From an uncultured delta proteobacterium (GTDB lineage Bacteria; Desulfobacterota; RBG-13-43-22): a stretch of 64,000 nucleotides of DNA. The first letter of the stretch is position 1; every line of letters begins with the position of its first letter. Below the pieces are notes generated by a model. The model saw nothing but the letters and a program-made list of their open reading frames with translations, was not told where the DNA came from and did not search any database. The stretch covers positions 704,001-768,000 of the forward strand of contig CAWBOS010000006.1 in the NCBI GenBank assembly GCA_963790475.1, given 5' to 3'. The translations under genes and the position numbers were made by a program. Shown here piece after piece: positions 46,667 to 56,221 of the stretch.

Positions 46667-48736
46667 CTAACCGGAAGTTTTCGGGTGCAGGCCGTTTCGG
46701 CCCGATGGAGAAACGGTTTCTTTTTTAAAGGTCAGTAAAATATCTCCGGTTTCTACAGCCTGGCCTGGCTGAACCAAAACCTTTTCCACCTCTCGGTCAC
46801 CGGGAGAGGCCACATAACTTTCCATTTTCATGGATTCGATACTCACCAGGTCTTGTCCGCGATAAACCCGGTCTTCGGGTTTGACCAAAACCGAGACCAC
46901 CAGCCCGGGCATAGGGCAAAGCAGTTCATTCTGGGCCGAGGCCGCTTTGGGCTTGGGCATGTATTGAGATAAAGCCCATTCCCGGGGGGTATAGATTTCA
47001 AAGGTTCGGGTTAACCCGCAATAGGCGACCCCGATAAAGTTGCCCTCATATTGAAGAGCAAACATGGGGGCCAGATGGTCGATCTTCAGTCTCAACCGAC
47101 GGCGGAAAAATTCAAATACCGGCGTTTTGACCTGATACTTGGACCCGTTGACCCAGACCGCCCATTCCCGGGGACCTCCCTTCTTGAGTACGCGTACTTC
47201 AAAACGATCGTCTTCCGCTTTGACCGTATACTCTACCCATTCGGAAAGCAGGTGGGTCAGCCCTACATGGGTGGCCATAGGTTTCAAAGATTCACGGACT
47301 AAGTTGTTGCGATTGTGATAAACCAAGGTGGCGGCAATCACCATAAAATGCAGGACCTCAACCGGCCAGGGGCATTTCCTGCGGCCTTCCTCAAAGTGCT
47401 CGGCGATGAAGTCAGTGGATAATTCTCCGGCGGAATAGGACGGATGGGTCAACACGGCATTAACAAAATTCAGATTGGTGGTCACCCCTTCCAGGTGATA
47501 GCCGTTCAAGGCCTGGACCAAAGTTTCCCGGGCCTCCTCCCGGGTTTCCCCCCAGGCCGATACTTTGGCCAAGAGCGAATCATAATAGACACTGATCAGA
47601 CTGCCGGCCTCGATCCCGCTGTCCAAACGGATGTTTTTCCCCTTGGGAACCGCTGAACGGGTGATCATACCCGTGGCCGGGAGGAACCCTCTGGAAGGAT
47701 CCTCGGCACAAATTCGGGCCTCCATGGCCCAGCCTTTGAATGCTACTTCGTTTTGTTGGAAAGGAAGGGATTGACCGGCGGCGATCCGGAGTTGAAGTTC
47801 CACTAAATCCAGACCGGTGACCCATTCCGTCACCGGATGTTCCACTTGAAGCCGGGTGTTCATCTCTAAAAAATAAAAGTCCCCTTGCTGGTCCAGCAAA
47901 AATTCTACGGTGCCGGCATTGACATAACCGGCTACCTGAGCGAGGCTACAGGCCAATTTCCCGATCCCCCTTCGTTGGGACTCGGACAAAGCCGGGGATG
48001 GGGTTTCCTCAATGATTTTTTGATATCGTCGCTGAACGGAACATTCCCTTTCCCCCAGATGAATCACCCGGCCGAAAGAGTCGGCCAGAATCTGAACTTC
48101 TATGTGCCGGGGTTTTTCCAGGTAGCGCTCTAAAAAAATGTGGTCATCACCAAAGGCTTTACGAGTCTCTTCCTGACAGGTTTTCAAGGCGGTGGCCAAT
48201 TCTTCCCGGCGGCGGACGATCCGCATGCCCTTGCCGCCGCCTCCGGCCGCGGGCTTGAGTAAAAGAGGGAAACCGATGGCATCGGCCAGGTCCTCGATTT
48301 TATGATGGTCGGAAAGGGCCTGGGCCGGCCCGGGGACCACCGGCAACCCGGCTTTGACGGCCAATTTTTTAGAGGCGATTTTATCGCCCAAAAGGGCTAT
48401 GGCCGAGGCCGGAGGACCGATAAAAGTCAATCCGGCCTCCGAAACCAAGCGCGCGAATTCAGGGTTTTCGGAAAGGAAACCGTACCCGGGGTGAATGGCT
48501 TGACACTTTTCCTTTAAAGCCAGGGCAATAATTTTTTCCTTATTCAAATAGGAGTGTTCCGATCGGGCCGGGCCCAACAAAAAGGCCTGGTCGGCTTCCT
48601 GGACATGATGAGATCTGGAATCCATTTCCGAATAAACGGCCACAGTCTCGATATTCAACCGCTTGCAGGTCCGGATTACCCGTATAGCTATTTCTCCTCG
48701 ATTGGCGATGAGGATTTTGTCGAACATAAGAGACAC
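46667..48736 (-). CDS. pccA: Acyl-CoA (propionyl-CoA-type) carboxylase alpha subunit (biotin carboxylase + BCCP)
   Basis: ANRGEIA, HPGYGFLSEN, GGGGKGMR, EMNTRLQVEHPVTE, ESMKME. Confidence 0.88.
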   Translation of the reverse strand: MSLMFDKILIANRGEIAIRVIRTCKRLNIETVAVYSEMDSRSHHVQEADQAFLLGPARSEHSYLNKEKIIALALKEKCQAIHPGYGFLSENPEFARLVSEAGLTFIGPPASAIALLGDKIASKKLAVKAGLPVVPGPAQALSDHHKIEDLADAIGFPLLLKPAAGGGGKGMRIVRRREELATALKTCQEETRKAFGDDHIFLERYLEKPRHIEVQILADSFGRVIHLGERECSVQRRYQKIIEETPSPALSESQRRGIGKLACSLAQVAGYVNAGTVEFLLDQQGDFYFLEMNTRLQVEHPVTEWVTGLDLVELQLRIAAGQSLPFQQNEVAFKGWAMEARICAEDPSRGFLPATGMITRSAVPKGKNIRLDSGIEAGSLISVYYDSLLAKVSAWGETREEARETLVQALNGYHLEGVTTNLNFVNAVLTHPSYSAGELSTDFIAEHFEEGRRKCPWPVEVLHFMVIAATLVYHNRNNLVRESLKPMATHVGLTHLLSEWVEYTVKAEDDRFEVRVLKKGGPREWAVWVNGSKYQVKTPVFEFFRRRLRLKIDHLAPMFALQYEGNFIGVAYCGLTRTFEIYTPREWALSQYMPKPKAASAQNELLCPMPGLVVSVLVKPEDRVYRGQDLVSIESMKMESYVASPGDREVEKVLVQPGQAVETGDILLTFKKETVSPSGRNGLHPKTSG

Positions 48737-48737
48737 C

Positions 48738-50366
48738 TCACAAAGGGATATTGCCGTGTTTCCGTAACGGCTTGTTGATTTGCTTGCCTTCCAGAACCTG
48801 CAGTCCTCTAATCAGGCGGTGCCGGGTACTTCGGGGGAAAATGACGTCGTCAATATAACCCCTTTGGGCGGCCAGAAAGGGGTTGGCGAAGGTTTGACGG
48901 TATTCCTCGGTTTTTTGCGACAGAAGGGCTTCCGGATCAGGGGCCTTTTGAATCTCTTTTCGATAAATGACTTCGGCGGCACCTCTGGGGCCCAACACGG
49001 CGATTTCGGCCGTCGGCCAGGCATAATTGATATCGCAGCGAATATGTTTGGAATTCATCACCACGTAGGCCCCCCCATAGGCTTTGCGAACGATAACCGA
49101 AATCCGGGGGACCGTAGCTTCGACAAAGGCATACAGCAGCTTAGCGCCGTGGCGTATGATTCCACCGTGTTCCTGTTCCGGTCCGGGCATGAAACCGGGG
49201 ACATCCACCAGACAAATCAAAGGGATATTGAAGGCGTCACAAAAACGGACAAATCGAGCGGCCTTAGTCGAGGCATTGGAATCCAATACCCCGGCCAGGA
49301 CTGCCGGCTGATTGGCGATCAGACCTATCGTCTGCCCGCCCAGGCGGCCGAACCCGCAAAGGATGTTCCGGGCAAAACGGGCTTGAATTTCCATAAACTC
49401 CGCGCCATCAAGAATGCTGTGAATTAAAACCTTCATATCATAACTCTGATTGGGGTTGATGGGAACCAGGTAGTCCAGGGCCGGATCTTCGCGGTCGGCT
49501 GGGTCCCTTAGATCCAGAATAGGCGCTGTCTGCCGATTATGCGATGGAAGATAATTAATCAGGCGCCTGATTTCCCTCAGGCAAAGAATATCATTCGGAA
49601 AAACAAAATGAGCCACCCCGCTTTTCTGGTTGTGAACCGCAGCCCCACCTAGATCTTCGGAACTGATTTCCTGATGGGTCACGGTCTTAACTACGTTAGG
49701 TCCGGTGACAAACATATTGGAAGTATGTTCCACCATGAAAGTAAAGTCGGTCATGGCCGGACTATAAACCGCCCCGCCGGCACAGGGACCCATAACGCAG
49801 GAGATTTGAGGGACTACCCCGCTGGCCAGGACGTTGCGATTAAATATCTCACCATAAGCGGCCAGGGCGTCCACGCCTTCTTGAATACGCGCCCCTCCGG
49901 AATCGTTAAGTCCTATTATCGGGGCCCCTACCCGGACGGCATGATCCATGACTTTGCAGATTTTTTGGGAATGGGCCTCTCCCAATGATCCGCCGACCAT
50001 GGTAAAGTCCTGGCTGAAGACAAAAACCTCTCGACCGTCAATGGTGCCGTGACCGGTAATCACGCCATCCCCCGGATAGTTGCGCTCTTTTCCAAAAGCA
50101 CCTCCCCGACCGGTTTTCAATAGATCAAATTCTTCCATAGACCCTTCGTCCAACAGCAGATCGAGACGTTCCCGGGCGGAGAGTTTTCCTTTTTTATGCT
50201 GAATGGCTATCTGCTCTGTTCCGCCCCCCTGGATGGCTTCAATACGCATCCCCTGCAGGACACCCAGATTATTTTGGATGGGTGTGGTGTTATCTTCGGG
50301 AGGGGATGCCGGCTTTGTTTTCTTCTTGGACGATAGAGTTTTTCCCGGGATCGTTTTCCGATTCAT
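48738..50366 (-). CDS. pccB: Acyl-CoA carboxylase beta (carboxyltransferase) subunit
   Basis: DSGGARIQEG, GPCAGGAVYSPA, DVPGF, RKAYGGAY, KHGNIPL; start set at ATG 50366 after GGAG. Confidence 0.88.
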   Translation of the reverse strand: MNRKTIPGKTLSSKKKTKPASPPEDNTTPIQNNLGVLQGMRIEAIQGGGTEQIAIQHKKGKLSARERLDLLLDEGSMEEFDLLKTGRGGAFGKERNYPGDGVITGHGTIDGREVFVFSQDFTMVGGSLGEAHSQKICKVMDHAVRVGAPIIGLNDSGGARIQEGVDALAAYGEIFNRNVLASGVVPQISCVMGPCAGGAVYSPAMTDFTFMVEHTSNMFVTGPNVVKTVTHQEISSEDLGGAAVHNQKSGVAHFVFPNDILCLREIRRLINYLPSHNRQTAPILDLRDPADREDPALDYLVPINPNQSYDMKVLIHSILDGAEFMEIQARFARNILCGFGRLGGQTIGLIANQPAVLAGVLDSNASTKAARFVRFCDAFNIPLICLVDVPGFMPGPEQEHGGIIRHGAKLLYAFVEATVPRISVIVRKAYGGAYVVMNSKHIRCDINYAWPTAEIAVLGPRGAAEVIYRKEIQKAPDPEALLSQKTEEYRQTFANPFLAAQRGYIDDVIFPRSTRHRLIRGLQVLEGKQINKPLRKHGNIPL

Positions 50367-50383
50367 GCTTTCTCCATTAATAA

Positions 50384-50423
50384 TGATAAAATCGTAAAAA
50401 GTCGTCACCCCGGCGAAAGCCGG
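50384..50423 (+). repeat. Left half of an intergenic palindromic repeat (family A), truncated at the DUF1670-like cassette
   Basis: TCGTAAAAAGTCGTCACC and CGGCGAAAGCCGG are also present in the complete copy at 59093-59270. Confidence 0.8.
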
Positions 50424-50565
50424 TCCCGCCTATAATTGTGCCATATGGCATTGAATGGTAAAATGATGATCATGATTGGTAAAGGAGTTAAGTCTACCCA
50501 GGCGAAGAAATCCAAGCCACGGGTTAGACCGAAATCCGTTTTTCAACCTCAAGGGGAGGACCGGC

Positions 50566-51387
50566 ATGATCAACAACTCAGCACTCCAAAAATGGGATCG
50601 ACTGGCCCAGAAACAATTGGATCGACAGTTCATGAATGAAATCATCCAAGGTCTGCAATGCTCGCCTTTCGAAGCCGGTGCCATCCTGGACACCGTCTAC
50701 AAAGTGTATCGACCTTATTTTGAAACCAGTGGCACGCTTAAGCCAGGGCAATTACTCTTTCAGGTAATTGCGGTGGAAGCGTCCCCGAATAAACCTTTAG
50801 CTCAGGGCCGACAAGTGACCGTAACGCTGACTCTCGATTCCGGTCCGGAGGACCTGAAGATCCGAAAGCAAAAAGGGATCATCGGACTCAGGCAGCACCG
50901 ACTCCAGCGGGTTTGTCACGAAGCCTTCCAACAAGGAGGCTTGTTGACCCTGGAGGACTTGGCCAATCGGTTGTTCAATTGTGGCGAAAGAACCCTGTCT
51001 CGAGATCTGCAGGCCCTCCAAGAAAAAAAGGTTCTCTTGCCCCTTCGTTCCACGATTAAAGATATGGGCCGTTCCATTTCCCATCGTAACCTAATCGTCC
51101 AGGAATGGCTCCAAGGAAAAGAATATACCGAAATCGCTCAGACCACCCATCATAGTATTCCTGCCATAAAAAACTATATCGACAAATTCAAACGGGTCAT
51201 CGCTTTAACCGAGGAAGGATTTGACCGCCATACCATCGCCTTCCTGGTCAAACTTTCGGCTCAACTGGTTGAAGTCTATTATCAGCTTTATCAAACTCTT
51301 ACGATCGTTCCTCATCGGAAAGAAGAATTGTGCCTTTTTCTAAAAAAAAAGAGCCCCTTCCCGACGCCGCCCAGGAGGATCCGATGA
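50566..51387 (+). CDS. DUF1670-like protein A (273 aa)
   Basis: ATG 50566 after GGGGAGGA; LKPGQ, EAFQQGGLLTLEDLA, RTLSRDL, LPLRSTIKDMGRSISHR, HSIPAIKNY. Confidence 0.78.
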   Translation: MINNSALQKWDRLAQKQLDRQFMNEIIQGLQCSPFEAGAILDTVYKVYRPYFETSGTLKPGQLLFQVIAVEASPNKPLAQGRQVTVTLTLDSGPEDLKIRKQKGIIGLRQHRLQRVCHEAFQQGGLLTLEDLANRLFNCGERTLSRDLQALQEKKVLLPLRSTIKDMGRSISHRNLIVQEWLQGKEYTEIAQTTHHSIPAIKNYIDKFKRVIALTEEGFDRHTIAFLVKLSAQLVEVYYQLYQTLTIVPHRKEELCLFLKKKSPFPTPPRRIR

Positions 51388-52133
51388 TTAAAGCGCCGGA
51401 CAGTCAAAAACGATATAACGCCGCCAGAGATCGCTTCCTCCAGGCGGGAATGATCAACTTTTTCGCCCGTGAATTCCCCAAACTCTTTGGCCCAGTGATG
51501 CGGCAAAAACTGGCCGAAGAAATTGTTGGTCTTTTTGAAAGCCTATCCCCGGAAGTCAAGCGACTGAAACCGGGGCAAATCCTTTGGAATGCCCTGGACC
51601 AGAAAACACGGGGCGATTCACCCCGCCGCAGATATGTTCCGGTCGTGTTATCCATCATTACCCCGGAGGATGTAGAACGACTGGCTCAAGGCCAGCCCCT
51701 GTCCCAGATCGCTGAAAAGGCCATCGCCCGCATAATCTTGGAAGCTCATGACCAAGGCGGCATCCTTTCCATGCGCGATATCGGCTTGCTCCTCTTAAAA
51801 CATCCATCCCAGGTCTCTCGGTTAAGAAAAAATTATGAGAAAGATCAGGGCTGCACTCTGCCGCATACCGGTGCCTTACATGACATGGGATCTTGTCTGT
51901 CCCATAAAACCACCATTCTGCAGAAGGTACTTGTCGAAAAAAAAGATCCGGCCGATGTCGCCAGAGAATGTCGTCATACTCAGCAAGCGGTCGACCGATA
52001 CCTTAAAGACTATCATCGTGTTAAAACGGTTTATGACCAAAATCAAGACCTAAATTATATCCATATCGTAACCGGATTAGCCAAACATGTGGTTAAACAG
52101 TACATTAACATCGTCAATCATGAAAACTTTTAA
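51384..52133 (+). CDS. DUF1670-like protein B (249 aa), paralogue of A
   Basis: AGGAGG RBS, ATGA overlap with the A stop; LKPGQ, EAHDQGGILSMRDIG, LPHTGALHDMGSCLSHK, HTQQAVDRY. Confidence 0.78.
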   Translation: MIKAPDSQKRYNAARDRFLQAGMINFFAREFPKLFGPVMRQKLAEEIVGLFESLSPEVKRLKPGQILWNALDQKTRGDSPRRRYVPVVLSIITPEDVERLAQGQPLSQIAEKAIARIILEAHDQGGILSMRDIGLLLLKHPSQVSRLRKNYEKDQGCTLPHTGALHDMGSCLSHKTTILQKVLVEKKDPADVARECRHTQQAVDRYLKDYHRVKTVYDQNQDLNYIHIVTGLAKHVVKQYINIVNHENF

Positions 52134-52154
52134 CTTGACCCGCCTACGGCGGGA

Positions 52155-52250
52155 TTGCCCTCATCCTTCATCATTGCGACGTACTTCTACGTACGTCTCA
52201 TTCCTCAGGATTTCGGGCGCCTTGTATCTGGACCTTTTTGAGCAACCTGT
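52155..52250. repeat. One arm of a second intergenic palindromic repeat (family B), truncated at the cassette
   Basis: TTGCCCTCATCCTT..GACGTAC-TTCTAC-GTACGTC..AGGATTTCGGGC..CCTTTTTGAGCAACCTG; the terminal CTTTTTGAGCAACCTG arm has no partner on the cassette side; family recognised from recall. Confidence 0.55.
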
Positions 52251-52275
52251 TAATAATGAGTTTTTCTACAAACAG

Positions 52276-53013
52276 TTAACTTATACCCGCGTTTGCTCTT
52301 TTTTGAAGAATCCGCCTGGCCGCCATTCGGACCGCAGCCGGAAGCATCAACCATTCATAAGGCAAGACCACTTCCTGCAGGGCCTTGGCTGCCTGTTTCG
52401 GATCCATCAACCCTTCACAAAAACCCTTTACGATGGTGCCCGGTATCAAAACTGCCTGCCGCAATAACATATCCCCGCCGTCATAATCCAACGTGGCCTT
52501 ATGCACGGTCGGATAGGTATAAAAATTATCCAACACCGTTTTCTTGGCGCGATAAATTAAGTCTTTCACTTCTTCCAGGACATGCTGGTGAACGGCCAGG
52601 GCGTACATCTTATCCCCGCCGTGACGGGCCGGATCGGCCGGATGAATATTATATATGTCCATCCCTTCAATCGGATAGACCTTATGAATACAGCCGACCA
52701 GAAAAATCAAATCCGTAAAGGTCGATTTCAAGATCCTGTTAACTGCGGCATTGAAATGATCCAACCCGGAATATTCTTTGTAATCGATCACCTCGCTGCG
52801 CACTCCATGGCTCCGGGCTTTTTCCAGACAACCGGCCCCTTTCCTGGTGCTGATCAGTATCGGCGGATTAATCTCCGGGATACATCCCGCCTCCCAGGCG
52901 GCCATGATGGAATTGGCATCCGTGCCGGAACCGGAAGCAATTAAGGCCAAATTAATCTTATCCGTGCCTGAGCTGCTTTTTGGCGAATAATCCTGTTTCA
53001 TTCCCTTTTCCAT
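52276..53013 (-). CDS. Formyltransferase family protein (divergent PurN-like)
   Basis: IASGSGTDA, NIHPAD, PTVH..YDGG. Confidence 0.75.
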   Translation of the reverse strand: MEKGMKQDYSPKSSSGTDKINLALIASGSGTDANSIMAAWEAGCIPEINPPILISTRKGAGCLEKARSHGVRSEVIDYKEYSGLDHFNAAVNRILKSTFTDLIFLVGCIHKVYPIEGMDIYNIHPADPARHGGDKMYALAVHQHVLEEVKDLIYRAKKTVLDNFYTYPTVHKATLDYDGGDMLLRQAVLIPGTIVKGFCEGLMDPKQAAKALQEVVLPYEWLMLPAAVRMAARRILQKRANAGIS

Positions 53014-53152
53014 ACTTCTCTCCTTTATTAACCTGACTCACCTCGCCTCACGAGTCTCTTTTTCAGACAAGATTATTTCATTTCCCGAAAGAATCTCAAA
53101 CGGCTTGCAGACCCCCAAATCCCTCAGAATCATATTTTTGATCGAACTCGTT

Positions 53153-56100
53153 TTATTTTGTTGCTTCTTCGACGGTCTTGATCTCCTCCTCTGTCAGCCC
53201 ATATAGATCATAAACCAGTTGGTCGATTTGGAGGTCGGTTGCGTCGATCTGGCGCTGGAGGACGATCTTTTCTTGGTCAGTTTTGGCCTCGGCCACTTGC
53301 TTATGTAAGGACAGCATTTGCTCGACATGGGCGACCATTTGGTCATGATGGGCCGTTTCTGCGGAGTCGCGCTTCATAATAGAAACTATTGGTAATTGCG
53401 CCAGGAATTGACGGTTGGCAGAAAGCCAGCCCCCTCGAAAGGGTGCACTGACAAAAGGAAAATACCAACGCAAAAGTTTTGAATTAAGCAATCCGAGAAG
53501 ATATATCATACCCAGCTCTTGAAATGCAGGCTTTAAAGTAATACCCCCAACGTCCACATTGTCCAGGAAATGACTGCCTTCTTGGTCATAAGCAGCATAT
53601 AATTTATCGACAAGGCGTGGAACGCACAGCTTTGGGAAAGATTGTCGTGCCATGTTTTTAAGGTAAAGATATCCGTACCAATGTGTTCCCTTTGCTTTTC
53701 CTTTTTCGCGTTCTTCTAATCGCTTTCTATTCTTTAGAAGGTATTCTGCGGTTTTTTGATAATTTTTAGAGATCAGATTGAAGTCAATCAATTTTACTAC
53801 TGAGTTTTCAATTCTATAGGGGAAAAGAATATATTGGCGGCGTGGCAAAGCGCGGTACCGGTTTACGTCTGATCCACTCACTAATGGGAACAATATATCT
53901 TTCTCAAATATCCAATCATCCCCAAGGGATTTGGATTTCAACCGCAAGGTGCGCGGTGTCTCTTCGATAAAATCCATAATGAATACATCATCTGCACTTG
54001 TTTGCAATCCAACAAAAACATCGGCTACCAATCCCAATTTTAAAGGTATCTCATTCAATCTCTCAAAAAGTCCAGCACTTTTTCCAATGGTAAAATTCCA
54101 TTCAGAAGGAGTAATTCTTGTTGAAGGAATTATTCTCTCGTTTGCCTTTCTCGTTTTGCTCCAGATATTCAAATCATCTACCTTAATAAATTGGAATTGT
54201 CTTGTACCTACCTTATCCAAGAATAAAAGACATGTATAAGTCGTCGCTCCGTCGAAGACCTGCTGTGCTCCAAAATGAACTATTTGAGAAAGGTGATTTC
54301 CCATTGAGATTGCATTGCGGAGAGGCTGGCCATACTGGGAATTAAAGAACTTGTGCGGCAGAATGAAGCCTAAATGCCCTTTAGGATTCAGAAGGCTCAG
54401 TCCTTTTTCAACAAAAACGACGTAAATGTCGTAATTGCCTTTACCGGCGGAAGCATAACGTTTCTTGTAAAACTCCACTTCAATAGGCGCCCACTCCTTT
54501 AAGGCTTGGATTCGCATGTAGGGTGGATTGCCAATGACTGCATCGAATCCCCCTGATTTCATGGCCTCGGGAAATTCGGTCTTCCAGTCAAAGGCATTGA
54601 TTCGATAAGCCTCATCTTCGTTCAAAAAGCTTAATTGCTGTCCTTGAGAAAAATCCGGCCCAATGAGGGAGTTGCCGCATTTGACATTATTGCCCAAATC
54701 TGGCAGGGCTCGTTCACGGAACAACTTGAGCTGTCTGGAGAAGGTTTGTTCGTTTTCTCCTTCCAGCACTTTTAATAAAAGCGATAGCTTGGTAACCTCC
54801 ACGGCTTGGGAGTCGATGTCCACTCCATAAATATTGTTCAGCAAGATGCGCTTACGCTCGGCAGTGGTTAGCTTCCACTCCCCCCTGTGACCTTGGCATA
54901 AAACAGGAGAACGTCCGGTGGTCCATTTCCGGGGTGTATTTTTCTGGTACCAGTCCAAATGCCAGCCCAGTAAATACTGATAGGCATTGATCAGGAATGA
55001 ACCCGACCCACAGGCCGGGTCCAAAATACGAATTTTAGCCCCCTGTTTGGGCGTCTTTCCGGTTACCAATTTCCCCAGGGTATTTTTAACGATGTAATCC
55101 ACAATATAAGTGGGAGTGTAATATACTCCACCGGCCTTCTTGACCTCCGGCTTGTCCTCTACGACTGCCCGGTGTCCGGCAGTCAGACGAATGACCTTCC
55201 CCAAAAACTGTTCATACACCTGGCCGAGGATATCGGCCGGCAGAACGAAAAATTCATAAGGGCTGTCGGGATAGTAAAGGTCCTTGATGATTTCCTTCAG
55301 CGGCGCATCATCAATAATCAAGTTGGGGGTGAGCCGGTCCGGTTCTTCATTCCGCCCTTTTTCTAAGGAAAAATGAAACAGGCCGGAATTATAACGTTCA
55401 TCGGCCAAACGGAAAAAATGATCAAGGCGGCGGTAAACATTGGTCCCATTGACTAACGATAAAAGCCGGTTGTAGTCTTCAATGCCCCGGTCCTCACAGA
55501 TACGCAGGAAAATGATCCGGTCGATAATTCGTTGGACGGAAAAGTTGAGCTCCCGCTGTGTGAGGTCCGGATTGCGCAGGGCCAGATTGCGGGCCAGGAG
55601 TTCCCGCCAGGATTCGATCTCTTTAAGAAAGGCCGTGTCCACCTCGGCCGTTCCTTTTTTCCCCTTACCCGCTTCGGCATATTTATCAAATGAACCCTTA
55701 AGAACCGCCTCATGAGAAAAGACAGAGACAATTTCTTCCCAATGTTGAACATATTCCTGTACGGTTAGATAAAGGACGCGGGCGGTTGAGGCTTTATCGG
55801 CCTTATCCGGTTTGATCCGGCAGTCATAAACAGCGAATTCTTCGAAATTGGTCAGGATACTCAAGGGAAGTTTAGCCGACCAGGCATAGCGGCGAAGCTG
55901 AAAGGCCGCGCCAATGTCTTCCTTAATCTTGATCGAGGGTTTCTTGGCTTCAATGAAAAATTTTCGGGTGCCGCCGATTCGGAAACAGTAATCCGGGGCT
56001 TTGGTCACTCCCCCCACTTTAATGGCATCTTCATGAATGACATCCTTATAGGACTCGGCATACCCCTGCTTGTTGTTCACGTCCCAGCCCAAGGCCTCAA

Positions 56101-56221
56101 AAAAAGGATCGACAAACTCCCGGCGCAACTGGGTCTCGTTGTAAGGGTCGGAATGATAGGCTTGATGGTTTTGTTCAAACCGGTTGATCAGTTCGGTGAT
56201 AACAGGAGGAAGTGCGATCAT
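53153..56221 (-). CDS. Type IIG (Eco57I/TaqI-C-like) fused restriction-modification enzyme
   Basis: PDY..FFIEAKK nuclease; GVYYTP, DPACGSG motif I, GNPPY motif IV; C-terminal TRD and IDQLVYDLYGLTEEE. Confidence 0.9.
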   Translation of the reverse strand: MIALPPVITELINRFEQNHQAYHSDPYNETQLRREFVDPFFEALGWDVNNKQGYAESYKDVIHEDAIKVGGVTKAPDYCFRIGGTRKFFIEAKKPSIKIKEDIGAAFQLRRYAWSAKLPLSILTNFEEFAVYDCRIKPDKADKASTARVLYLTVQEYVQHWEEIVSVFSHEAVLKGSFDKYAEAGKGKKGTAEVDTAFLKEIESWRELLARNLALRNPDLTQRELNFSVQRIIDRIIFLRICEDRGIEDYNRLLSLVNGTNVYRRLDHFFRLADERYNSGLFHFSLEKGRNEEPDRLTPNLIIDDAPLKEIIKDLYYPDSPYEFFVLPADILGQVYEQFLGKVIRLTAGHRAVVEDKPEVKKAGGVYYTPTYIVDYIVKNTLGKLVTGKTPKQGAKIRILDPACGSGSFLINAYQYLLGWHLDWYQKNTPRKWTTGRSPVLCQGHRGEWKLTTAERKRILLNNIYGVDIDSQAVEVTKLSLLLKVLEGENEQTFSRQLKLFRERALPDLGNNVKCGNSLIGPDFSQGQQLSFLNEDEAYRINAFDWKTEFPEAMKSGGFDAVIGNPPYMRIQALKEWAPIEVEFYKKRYASAGKGNYDIYVVFVEKGLSLLNPKGHLGFILPHKFFNSQYGQPLRNAISMGNHLSQIVHFGAQQVFDGATTYTCLLFLDKVGTRQFQFIKVDDLNIWSKTRKANERIIPSTRITPSEWNFTIGKSAGLFERLNEIPLKLGLVADVFVGLQTSADDVFIMDFIEETPRTLRLKSKSLGDDWIFEKDILFPLVSGSDVNRYRALPRRQYILFPYRIENSVVKLIDFNLISKNYQKTAEYLLKNRKRLEEREKGKAKGTHWYGYLYLKNMARQSFPKLCVPRLVDKLYAAYDQEGSHFLDNVDVGGITLKPAFQELGMIYLLGLLNSKLLRWYFPFVSAPFRGGWLSANRQFLAQLPIVSIMKRDSAETAHHDQMVAHVEQMLSLHKQVAEAKTDQEKIVLQRQIDATDLQIDQLVYDLYGLTEEEIKTVEEATK

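Follow-up and report, generated by a model that had tools for sequence, protein, structure and literature searches.

A probable insertion-sequence-like element of hairpin targets whose only genes encode two paralogous DUF1670 proteins

Insertion sequences (IS) of the copy-out-paste-in type with a DDE transposase (IS3, IS30, IS21 and IS256) form a promoter at the junction created when their ends are joined in a circle, and work on IS2 and IS911 has reportedly described such a promoter arising from the joined ends. IS200/IS605 elements make no target duplication, possess asymmetric ends with subterminal palindromes, insert directly 3' of a short specific sequence and are linked to hairpins resembling repetitive extragenic palindromic (REP) sequences; IS1397/ISKpn1 and group IIC introns insert in hairpin loops or beside hairpins, where REP sequences and terminators offer safe sites. 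ISPpu9 and ISPpu10, reportedly the subject of published studies, are, together with IS621, IS110/IS1111 elements to which the element described here may be likened. In a 64,000-nucleotide stretch of the genome of an uncultured delta proteobacterium (hereafter the window; G000:C6:704001-768000) we find a locus that is likely to be one copy of an IS-like mobile element, about 1.73 kb long when intact, whose sole genes, A and B, encode two paralogous DUF1670 proteins. It shares with IS110/IS1111 elements (IS621, ISPpu9 and ISPpu10) scarless insertion without target duplication, the choice of specific targets that are often REP hairpins, a long non-coding left end and a C-T crossover core, as these traits are described in PMC11208160 and PMC1525189. 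According to the former source, a sigma-70 promoter is rebuilt across the abutted right and left ends of IS110 circles, a trait with a possible counterpart in the promoter halves at the two ends of the DUF1670 element.

From each of these systems the element also departs. Unlike IS110/IS1111, it has neither the DEDD RuvC-like domain (PF01548) nor Transposase_20 (PF02371), only PF07900; it carries two paralogous genes instead of one as well as 12-bp subterminal palindromes, and it gives no sign of an RNA setting the target, since the leader loops present in 27 of the 63 elements compared below are constant across targets. In contrast to IS200/IS605, it has no Y1 HUH domain (PF01797), its palindromes with 2-nt centres fit dimeric helix-turn-helix (HTH) sites better than single-strand hairpins, and its proposed junction promoter implies a double-stranded circle. 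The DDE elements differ from it in their DDE/RNase H fold, their fixed-length target duplication and their terminal inverted repeats, of which the DUF1670 element has none beyond the palindromes; IS1397 itself, a DDE element of the IS3 family, does make duplications. Group IIC introns carry a ribozyme and a reverse transcriptase, whereas neither an Rfam match nor a reverse transcriptase domain was found here, and for the tyrosine and serine recombinases there was no Pfam match and no Foldseek match to a catalytic fold at E <= 0.001. Catalogued prokaryotic insertion sequences all rest on a handful of transposase chemistries, none of which is matched by the two proteins, and we know of no IS family that uses such proteins. 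Full-text literature searches, with supplements and subscription journals outside their coverage, returned no mention of DUF1670 or PF07900 and nothing on matching new IS or transposase families.

Copies, ends and target hairpins

That the unit is mobile had been proposed in an initial annotation made from the letters of the window, and the copies found elsewhere bear this out. A second full copy lies in contig C10 of the same genome, at the same point of another TCCCGCC...GGCGGGA hairpin (left junction TCCCGCC/TATAATTG; right side CTTGACCCGCC-ATTTGGCGATAAC-TTT-GGCGGGA). The two full copies differ from each other at 3 of 1712 positions, so that a single residue of A is altered and protein B stays the same, and both are flanked by host repeats. 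A third copy is a 525-bp left-end fragment in contig C12 that ends at an internal GTTGACCC and whose left end, again TATAAT, directly adjoins coding DNA of a gene of the AcrB family (PF00873, E 2e-106, profile positions 47-452), broken near profile position 47; the genome further holds a remnant, described below. Outside this genome, exactly five copies were found in a Bacteroidales genome (G041) and three in an Acidobacteriota genome (G042), with identity stopping sharply at the element ends. The element is therefore present in multiple, near-identical copies within genomes and is sporadic among relatives, and it agrees with the general definition of an insertion sequence, being short, with defined ends, near-identical copies at unrelated sites and genes that would serve movement only. 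As a side observation, the AcrB/RND gene split near its 5' end by the 525-bp fragment (G000:C12:1412919-1413438) has an in-frame TAG just downstream and is a probable pseudogene.

All parts of the window copy are given here on the plus strand. Identity with copies 2 and 3 begins at 50431, where the left end (50431-50450), conserved in relatives, opens with TATAAT, the first six bases of TATAATTG, and continues into the 12-bp palindrome TGCCATATGGCA. A non-coding leader with only a weak stem-loop in the window lineage (50451-50565) separates it from gene A. Of the intact right end, CTTGACCCGCCATTTGGCGATAAC, the window copy keeps only CTTGACCCGCC (52134-52144), which by comparison with copy 2 and relatives comprises the -35-like TTGACC together with the first half of the palindrome at this end; the final 13 nt, ATTTGGCGATAAC, are missing, and the window copy is a defective derivative in this respect. 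It is enclosed by the two halves of a hairpin, the 5' arm TCCCGCC (50424-50430) abutting the left end, and the loop TAC (52145-52147) and complementary 3' arm GGCGGGA (52148-52154) following the right end, a position in which relatives have 2-4 loop bases. Outside the element and its hairpin lie a REP-like host module, GTCGTCACCCCGGCGAAAGCCGG (50401-50423), with 181 genome matches at <= 4 mismatches, and a second host repeat of about 112 bp (52155-52266) with 12 other BLAST matches of >100 bp in the genome.

To define the ends more generally, 107 sources (copy 2 and loci L016-L121) were examined for the end motifs; both motifs occurred in 64, and removal of one spurious locus (L081) left 63 elements. 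In these, the left end starts with TATAAT, TATATT or TACATT and has the TGCCATATGGCA palindrome 8 bp inside, and the right end consists of C-TTGACN and 17 nt with a similar palindrome, ending in ..TAAC or ..TATC. Beyond the ends, left and right flanks differ between lineages and yet complement each other. Among the 49 loci whose left and right flanks extend for at least 20 nt and at least 26 nt, respectively, the left end abuts a C-rich 5' arm, and past the right end come the entire loop, of 2-4 nt, and then the 3' arm. A perfect stem of at least 5 pairs was found in 36 of the 49 loci and one of at least 7 pairs in 19, as against 4.6% and 0.5% with shuffled right flanks and 22% and 3.8% with permuted partners. 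Where the stem reached at least 5 pairs, the left offset was 0 in 29/36 loci and the right offset 2-4 nt in 35/36. The left flank ends with CC in 41 of the 49 loci, and its last six bases are 72% C.

The closest relative of the window copy (L096, 87% DNA identity) sits between different arms, CCCCCTCCC and GGGAGGGGG, and since the arms differ between relatives as close as these, they represent the target and not element sequence. On these alignments the hairpins are pre-existing targets rather than excision footprints. The initial annotation had allowed for both; its target half is upheld, and its footprint half is countered by the differing arms and by the existence of empty members of the host repeats. 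In the five-copy Bacteroidales genome, 28 TCCCC-N4-GGGGA sites are present as compared to 0 for a reversed-pattern control, 11 of the 28 having a TAAA or TTTA loop and many belonging to one repeat family. Three of its copies (L058, L061 and L057) correspond to the empty repeat (..TCCCC-TAAA-GGGGA..) with the element placed between arm and loop, in both orientations relative to the host repeat and with nothing duplicated or lost; the other two (L059 and L067) have one extra C each. No target duplication was seen at inserted elements, either in the 49-locus analysis or between empty and filled repeats of this genome. The flanks of other DUF1670 pairs, in which the initial annotation had suggested looking for a repeated core that rebuilds a hairpin, do show comparable hairpin-rebuilding boundaries; the repeated core is not borne out, as nothing is duplicated in the relatives. 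A target that merely resembles the palindrome of the element was considered as well: this is true of CCGCC-type arms and fails for CCCC or CCCTT arms.

In the genome of the window, TCCCGCC-N(0-25)-GGCGGGA occurs 28 times where about 1.9 occurrences are expected, and this excess, together with the position of copy 2 at the same hairpin point, makes the arrangement more than a chance one. Several of the 28 hairpins stand in the exact repeat context of copy 2 and yet are empty, and at C10:1619442 and C12:359425 an empty TCCCGCC-NNN-GGCGGGA hairpin is followed by the repeat of about 112 bp. The REP-like sequences left of the window copy (50381-50423) belong to a family resembling REPs or miniature inverted-repeat transposable elements that is spread genome-wide (GTCGTCACCCCGGCGAAAGCCGG ... 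CTGGATTCCGGCTTTCGCCGGAATGAC); its centres are modular, some of them carrying the TCCCGCC hairpin, and its left module is abundant in genomes of the same genus too.

Joined ends, circle and remnant

If the ends of copy 2 were abutted, they would read TTGACC-17-TATAAT, a split promoter of the sigma-70 type. Between the -35-like hexamer and the terminus of the right end there are 17 nt, or 18 nt in some lineages; the -10-like hexamer occupies bases 1-6 of the left end in 52 of the 63 elements. Both halves at a spacing of 17-18 nt are present in 40/63; the -10 alone was found in 12 elements, the -35 alone in 5, and 6 lack both. Bacteroidota elements begin with TAnnTTTG, which we take to be the -7 motif of that phylum. 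In the integrated window copy, a search of the plus-strand leader detected no sigma-70-like promoter upstream of A. A promoter split in this way across joined ends implies a circular intermediate: the element would be excised as a circle, its right end joined to its left, and the junction would assemble the promoter that drives A and B. Across the joined ends of the window copy the two promoter halves would be spaced by 4 nt, so that this copy is probably crippled.

The bases at the two ends follow a common pattern. Directly before the left end the target has C in 57/63 elements, and the left end itself begins with T in 55/63; on the other side, the last right-end base is C in 56/63 and the base that follows is T in 40/59. 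These preferences indicate a C/T step common to the donor junction and the target, which is reminiscent of the CT core of the IS621 crossover (PMC11208160). Proteins A and B would bind the subterminal palindromes, probably as a heterodimer, and would insert the circle by a conservative exchange at the C/T step, between the donor (..AAC/TAT..) and the target (..CC/T..).

The 13 nt missing from the window copy have a counterpart elsewhere in the genome. Their sequence, ATTTGGCGATAAC, occurs twice where about 0.19 occurrences are expected by chance, once at the right end of copy 2 and once at C10:1434294, where it separates the 5' arm of a TCCCGCC hairpin (G000:C10:1434287-1434316) from the loop; the paralogue of this hairpin at C12:111481 is empty. 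This remnant and the window copy are structurally complementary, the one holding exactly the 13 nt lost by the other, and the remnant is likely the trace of a lost copy, reciprocal to the defect of the window copy. The simplest reading would be a single aberrant excision that exchanged at the right-end-internal CCCGCC rather than at the right-end terminus and left 13 nt behind, after which the shortened circle would have re-entered at 50430/50431. This reading, which we infer, would also be the sole indirect evidence for excision and reintegration.

Genes A and B and their relatives

Gene A (50566-51387, plus strand; 273 aa) most likely starts at the ATG at 50566, behind a GGGGAGG ribosome-binding site, and the start of gene B (51384-52133, plus strand; 249 aa) overlaps its stop (ATGA). 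Both products belong to DUF1670 (PF07900; A, E 1.6e-46, 158.9 bits; B, E 6.6e-48, 163.4 bits; cut-off 25) and are 23% identical to each other. A Pfam scan at E <= 1 gave otherwise weak matches to HTH families below cut-off, and NCBIfam and PHROGs contained nothing above threshold for either protein. The initial annotation had described the pair as the only cargo and as devoid of recognisable DDE, HUH, serine or DEDD motifs. Both points stand: exactly two open reading frames (ORFs) of at least 180 aa are present in 62 of the 63 elements, the exception being L053 with one, and Pfam, Foldseek and a PDB profile detected no DDE, HUH, serine, tyrosine or DEDD family or fold in A or B. In a side observation on many relatives (L016-L039 and others), the A frame is open from left-end base 8, where TATAATTGTG contains a GTG, and the ORFs reach 316-323 aa; the window lineage has no such extended frame.

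For protein alignments a set of 58 was used, from which L091, L110, L114 and L099 had been dropped for odd ORF calls and L053 for its single ORF. In six pairs, the ratio of nonsynonymous to synonymous change (pN/pS) was 0.15-0.35 for A and 0.11-0.32 for B; as judged from these ratios both proteins are under purifying selection. In an AlphaFold2 model of A (77-row alignment; mean local confidence, pLDDT, 91.8), three helices at the N terminus lead into a beta hairpin, which is followed by a long helix and a winged HTH; beyond a conserved linker (P-L-R-S-x3-D-x-G-x4-H-R) come two further HTH units. Residues conserved in A include S33, D96, R109, R115, E130/D131, R161, K165/D166, H173 and Y204. 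For the whole model, Foldseek matched no PDB structure at E <= 0.001, the best being the winged HTH of MntR at 0.12, and likewise none for residues 1-125 (pLDDT 91.6), where HU/IHF at E 0.3-0.4 is not significant and serves as a lead only. A PDB sequence profile search returned winged-HTH regulators only, and the ESM Atlas only HTH_23-like clusters with scores below 0.9. On these results A and B look like site-specific, perhaps structure-specific, DNA binders with no recognisable active site. A run in A reminiscent of tyrosine recombinases (R161-K165-H173-R174-H196-Y204) was considered and rejected, as it falls within ordinary HTH motifs, is partly lost in B and has no fold match.

Relatives of these proteins are numerous and widely scattered. 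Protein A had 1525 matches at E <= 1e-3 among 2109 candidates; its best 120 matches are 67-93% identical to it, and the few that are named are called hypothetical, uncharacterized protein YerC or 'DUF1670 domain-containing protein'. An all-against-library search yielded 1253 clusters at 50% identity, including fused proteins with two or three DUF1670 units. Loci were collected from species genomes (80, with 105 confirmed) and from metagenomes (27); they span Bacteroidota, Desulfobacterota, Chloroflexota, Acidobacteriota, Planctomycetota, other phyla and a few archaeal bins, many being contigs of about 2 kb with weak bin assignment. Within 40 related genomes, PF07900 was above cut-off in just one, and that match is a broken fragment. 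A tblastn search of plasmids found no match.

We consider it likely that the explanation favoured here holds in all its parts together, namely an IS-like element that targets hairpins, is excised as a circle, is expressed from a junction promoter and is inserted with the help of A and B. A bolder proposal, which we put forward tentatively and would not rate as high as an even chance, is that A and B themselves form a so far unrecognised kind of DNA recombinase or transposase that has no relationship to the DDE, DEDD, HUH, serine, tyrosine and Cas1 enzymes; the pair would recognise the boundary between 5' arm and loop in hairpins or cruciforms and insert the circle there scarlessly. If this were true, PF07900 with its 1253 clusters would mark a widespread, unannotated superfamily of insertion sequences in bacteria and archaea. 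There would be novelty either way, in a new catalytic class or in an element that encodes only site-selecting DNA binders and borrows a cellular enzyme. In both cases the element is compact and widespread, its ends are clear, its target rule is precise and related to structure, and it bears the hallmarks of a circular intermediate; it also helps to account for REP-like repeats and terminator hairpins as safe landing sites. PF07900 genes, presently labelled 'DUF1670 domain-containing protein', could be reannotated as genes of mobile elements, and a scarless insertion system aimed at short hairpins is a potential tool.

Alternative explanations and genomic neighbours

Several observations weigh against the explanation favoured here. 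Neither A nor B has a detectable nuclease or recombinase fold, and a prediction of the A-B complex gives weak support, with a score of 0.36 (best control 0.00) in a range, up to 0.60, in which only 7 of 80 solved complexes passed and into which both passing mismatched pairs also fell. No circle junction was present in the assembled contigs of four runs (X1-X4), which cannot show rare forms. Relatives yielded no clean empty allele of the site that the window copy occupies: the locus of the carboxyltransferase orthologue in the same-genus genomes G012 (85%) and G004 (84%) loses synteny at the gene start and offers nothing comparable. The right junction of copy 3 has 1-2 extra C, possibly duplicated, for which scarless insertion does not account, and many relatives lie on short contigs of metagenome-assembled genomes, making host assignment unreliable. 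Finally, genes of PF01548 and PF01797 are present in each of the multi-copy hosts G000, G041 and G042 and are the potential source of an enzyme acting in trans. A candidate joint in runs X2 and X4 that skips 1730 and has AAA in between was also inspected; it is a paralogous empty hairpin repeat like that at C12:963381 and not an excised allele.

The main rival is accordingly mobilisation in trans, in which the element would be non-autonomous, A and B would be DNA-binding or regulatory proteins only, and the cutting would be done by a resident IS110-type DEDD or Y1 HUH/REP-associated transposase, by Xer or by a hairpin or junction nuclease. We regard it as unlikely, but as the alternative to be taken most seriously. 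The predicted architecture of A and B, all-helical with multiple HTH units and one beta hairpin and with no catalytic fold, is what it would lead one to expect, as are the HU/IHF proteins, not significant as they are, among the best matches of the N-terminal domain. The C/T step, scarless insertion and the junction promoter are also traits of IS110 (PMC11208160). Yet the donor recognition of IS110 uses an IS-specific RNA, whereas the ends are here nearly constant across lineages. The ends and both genes have moreover been conserved together across many phyla (pN/pS 0.11-0.35), and a split promoter would boost A and B exactly when the circle exists, which fits proteins of integration. As for the resident enzymes, PF01548 and PF01797 are common anyway, each occurring in 6/14 control genomes, and their presence says little.

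Far less probable is the model that the initial annotation took literally, of an element consisting of the exact 1714 bp between two copies of the 8-mer CCCGCCTA, with the 8-mer as a core or target duplication and the hairpins as excision footprints. The repeat is real (50425-50432 and 52139-52146, the second copy 5 nt past the TAA stop at 52131-52133), and deleting the DNA between the repeats does yield TCCCGCC-TAC-GGCGGGA, with the arms at 50424-50430 and 52148-52154. The 8-mer is nevertheless no boundary repeat or duplicated target, for the CCCGCC of its second copy forms the left half of a palindrome of the right end, CGCCATTTGGCG, which copy 2 and the relatives retain intact, and 'TA' belongs to the loop; nor do the 1714 bp delimit the element, whose left end is at 50431 and whose intact right end extends 13 nt further. 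Copy 2 shares only CCCGCC and then continues with 13 more conserved right-end bases, and the 62 relatives with motif-defined ends have the same full right end. Given also that arms vary between relatives, that empty hairpins belong to host repeat families and that the relatives have no duplication, the sequences already contradict this as a general model. It may retain a local meaning, in that the window copy may have integrated through a shortened circle whose junction shared CCCGCCTA with the target.

Equally improbable in our view is targeting by an RNA in the manner of bridge or seeker RNAs, in which a leader RNA transcribed from the junction promoter would select the hairpin. In 27 of the 63 elements the leader between the left end and A contains a conserved structured motif (for example L017:3914-3983, L055:3887-3956 and L092:60-129), made up of a stem of at least 12 pairs, a 7x7 internal loop (GGAAGGA / GACTGGA) and a GGGC-GTA-GCCC hairpin, at the same position as the non-coding RNA of IS110 (PMC11208160). 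The motif covaries strongly: over 33 distinct sequences (of 34, L041 being omitted because its 3' half is missing) 95.1% of cells pair, compared to 70% in shuffles and 31-48% in slid controls, 14 of 16 pairs have changed on both sides, and in L092 the inner stem is swapped to GCCC/GGGC. The loops are nearly invariant, while the target arms vary between lineages. The core motif, at <= 3 mismatches, is missing from 36/63 elements including the window lineage, and the window leader is not significantly structured (fold z-score -0.07); in the window element and 10 relatives, Rfam at E <= 0.1 gave no real match, chance microRNA matches aside. Because the loops are constant across targets and the motif is absent from the window lineage, the leader RNA is treated here as a putative regulatory element rather than a guide.

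Hardly credible, lastly, is an immobile unit of two transcription regulators that recombination between host repeats would have duplicated: the proteins do look like regulators and both full copies lie inside repeats, but the boundaries are base-identical at unrelated loci and in unrelated genomes, one fragment lies within a coding gene, other genomes hold 5 and 3 copies, the distribution is sporadic and ends and split promoter are conserved, so that the comparison of sequences already speaks against it.

Some further observations concern the surroundings of the window copy. The genome is rich in repeats and insertion sequences, with 17 matches to PF01548 (IS110-type), of which ten have the same score, and 20 to PF01797 (Y1 HUH). 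Directly left of the element, on the minus strand, is a carboxyltransferase gene (PF01039, E 1.5e-189) in the region 46667-50366, and to its right, also on the minus strand, a formyltransferase-like gene (PF00551, E 3e-6) lies in the region 52276-56221. By eye, the minus-strand ORF of 1022 aa at 53153-56221 is a candidate fused restriction-modification enzyme.

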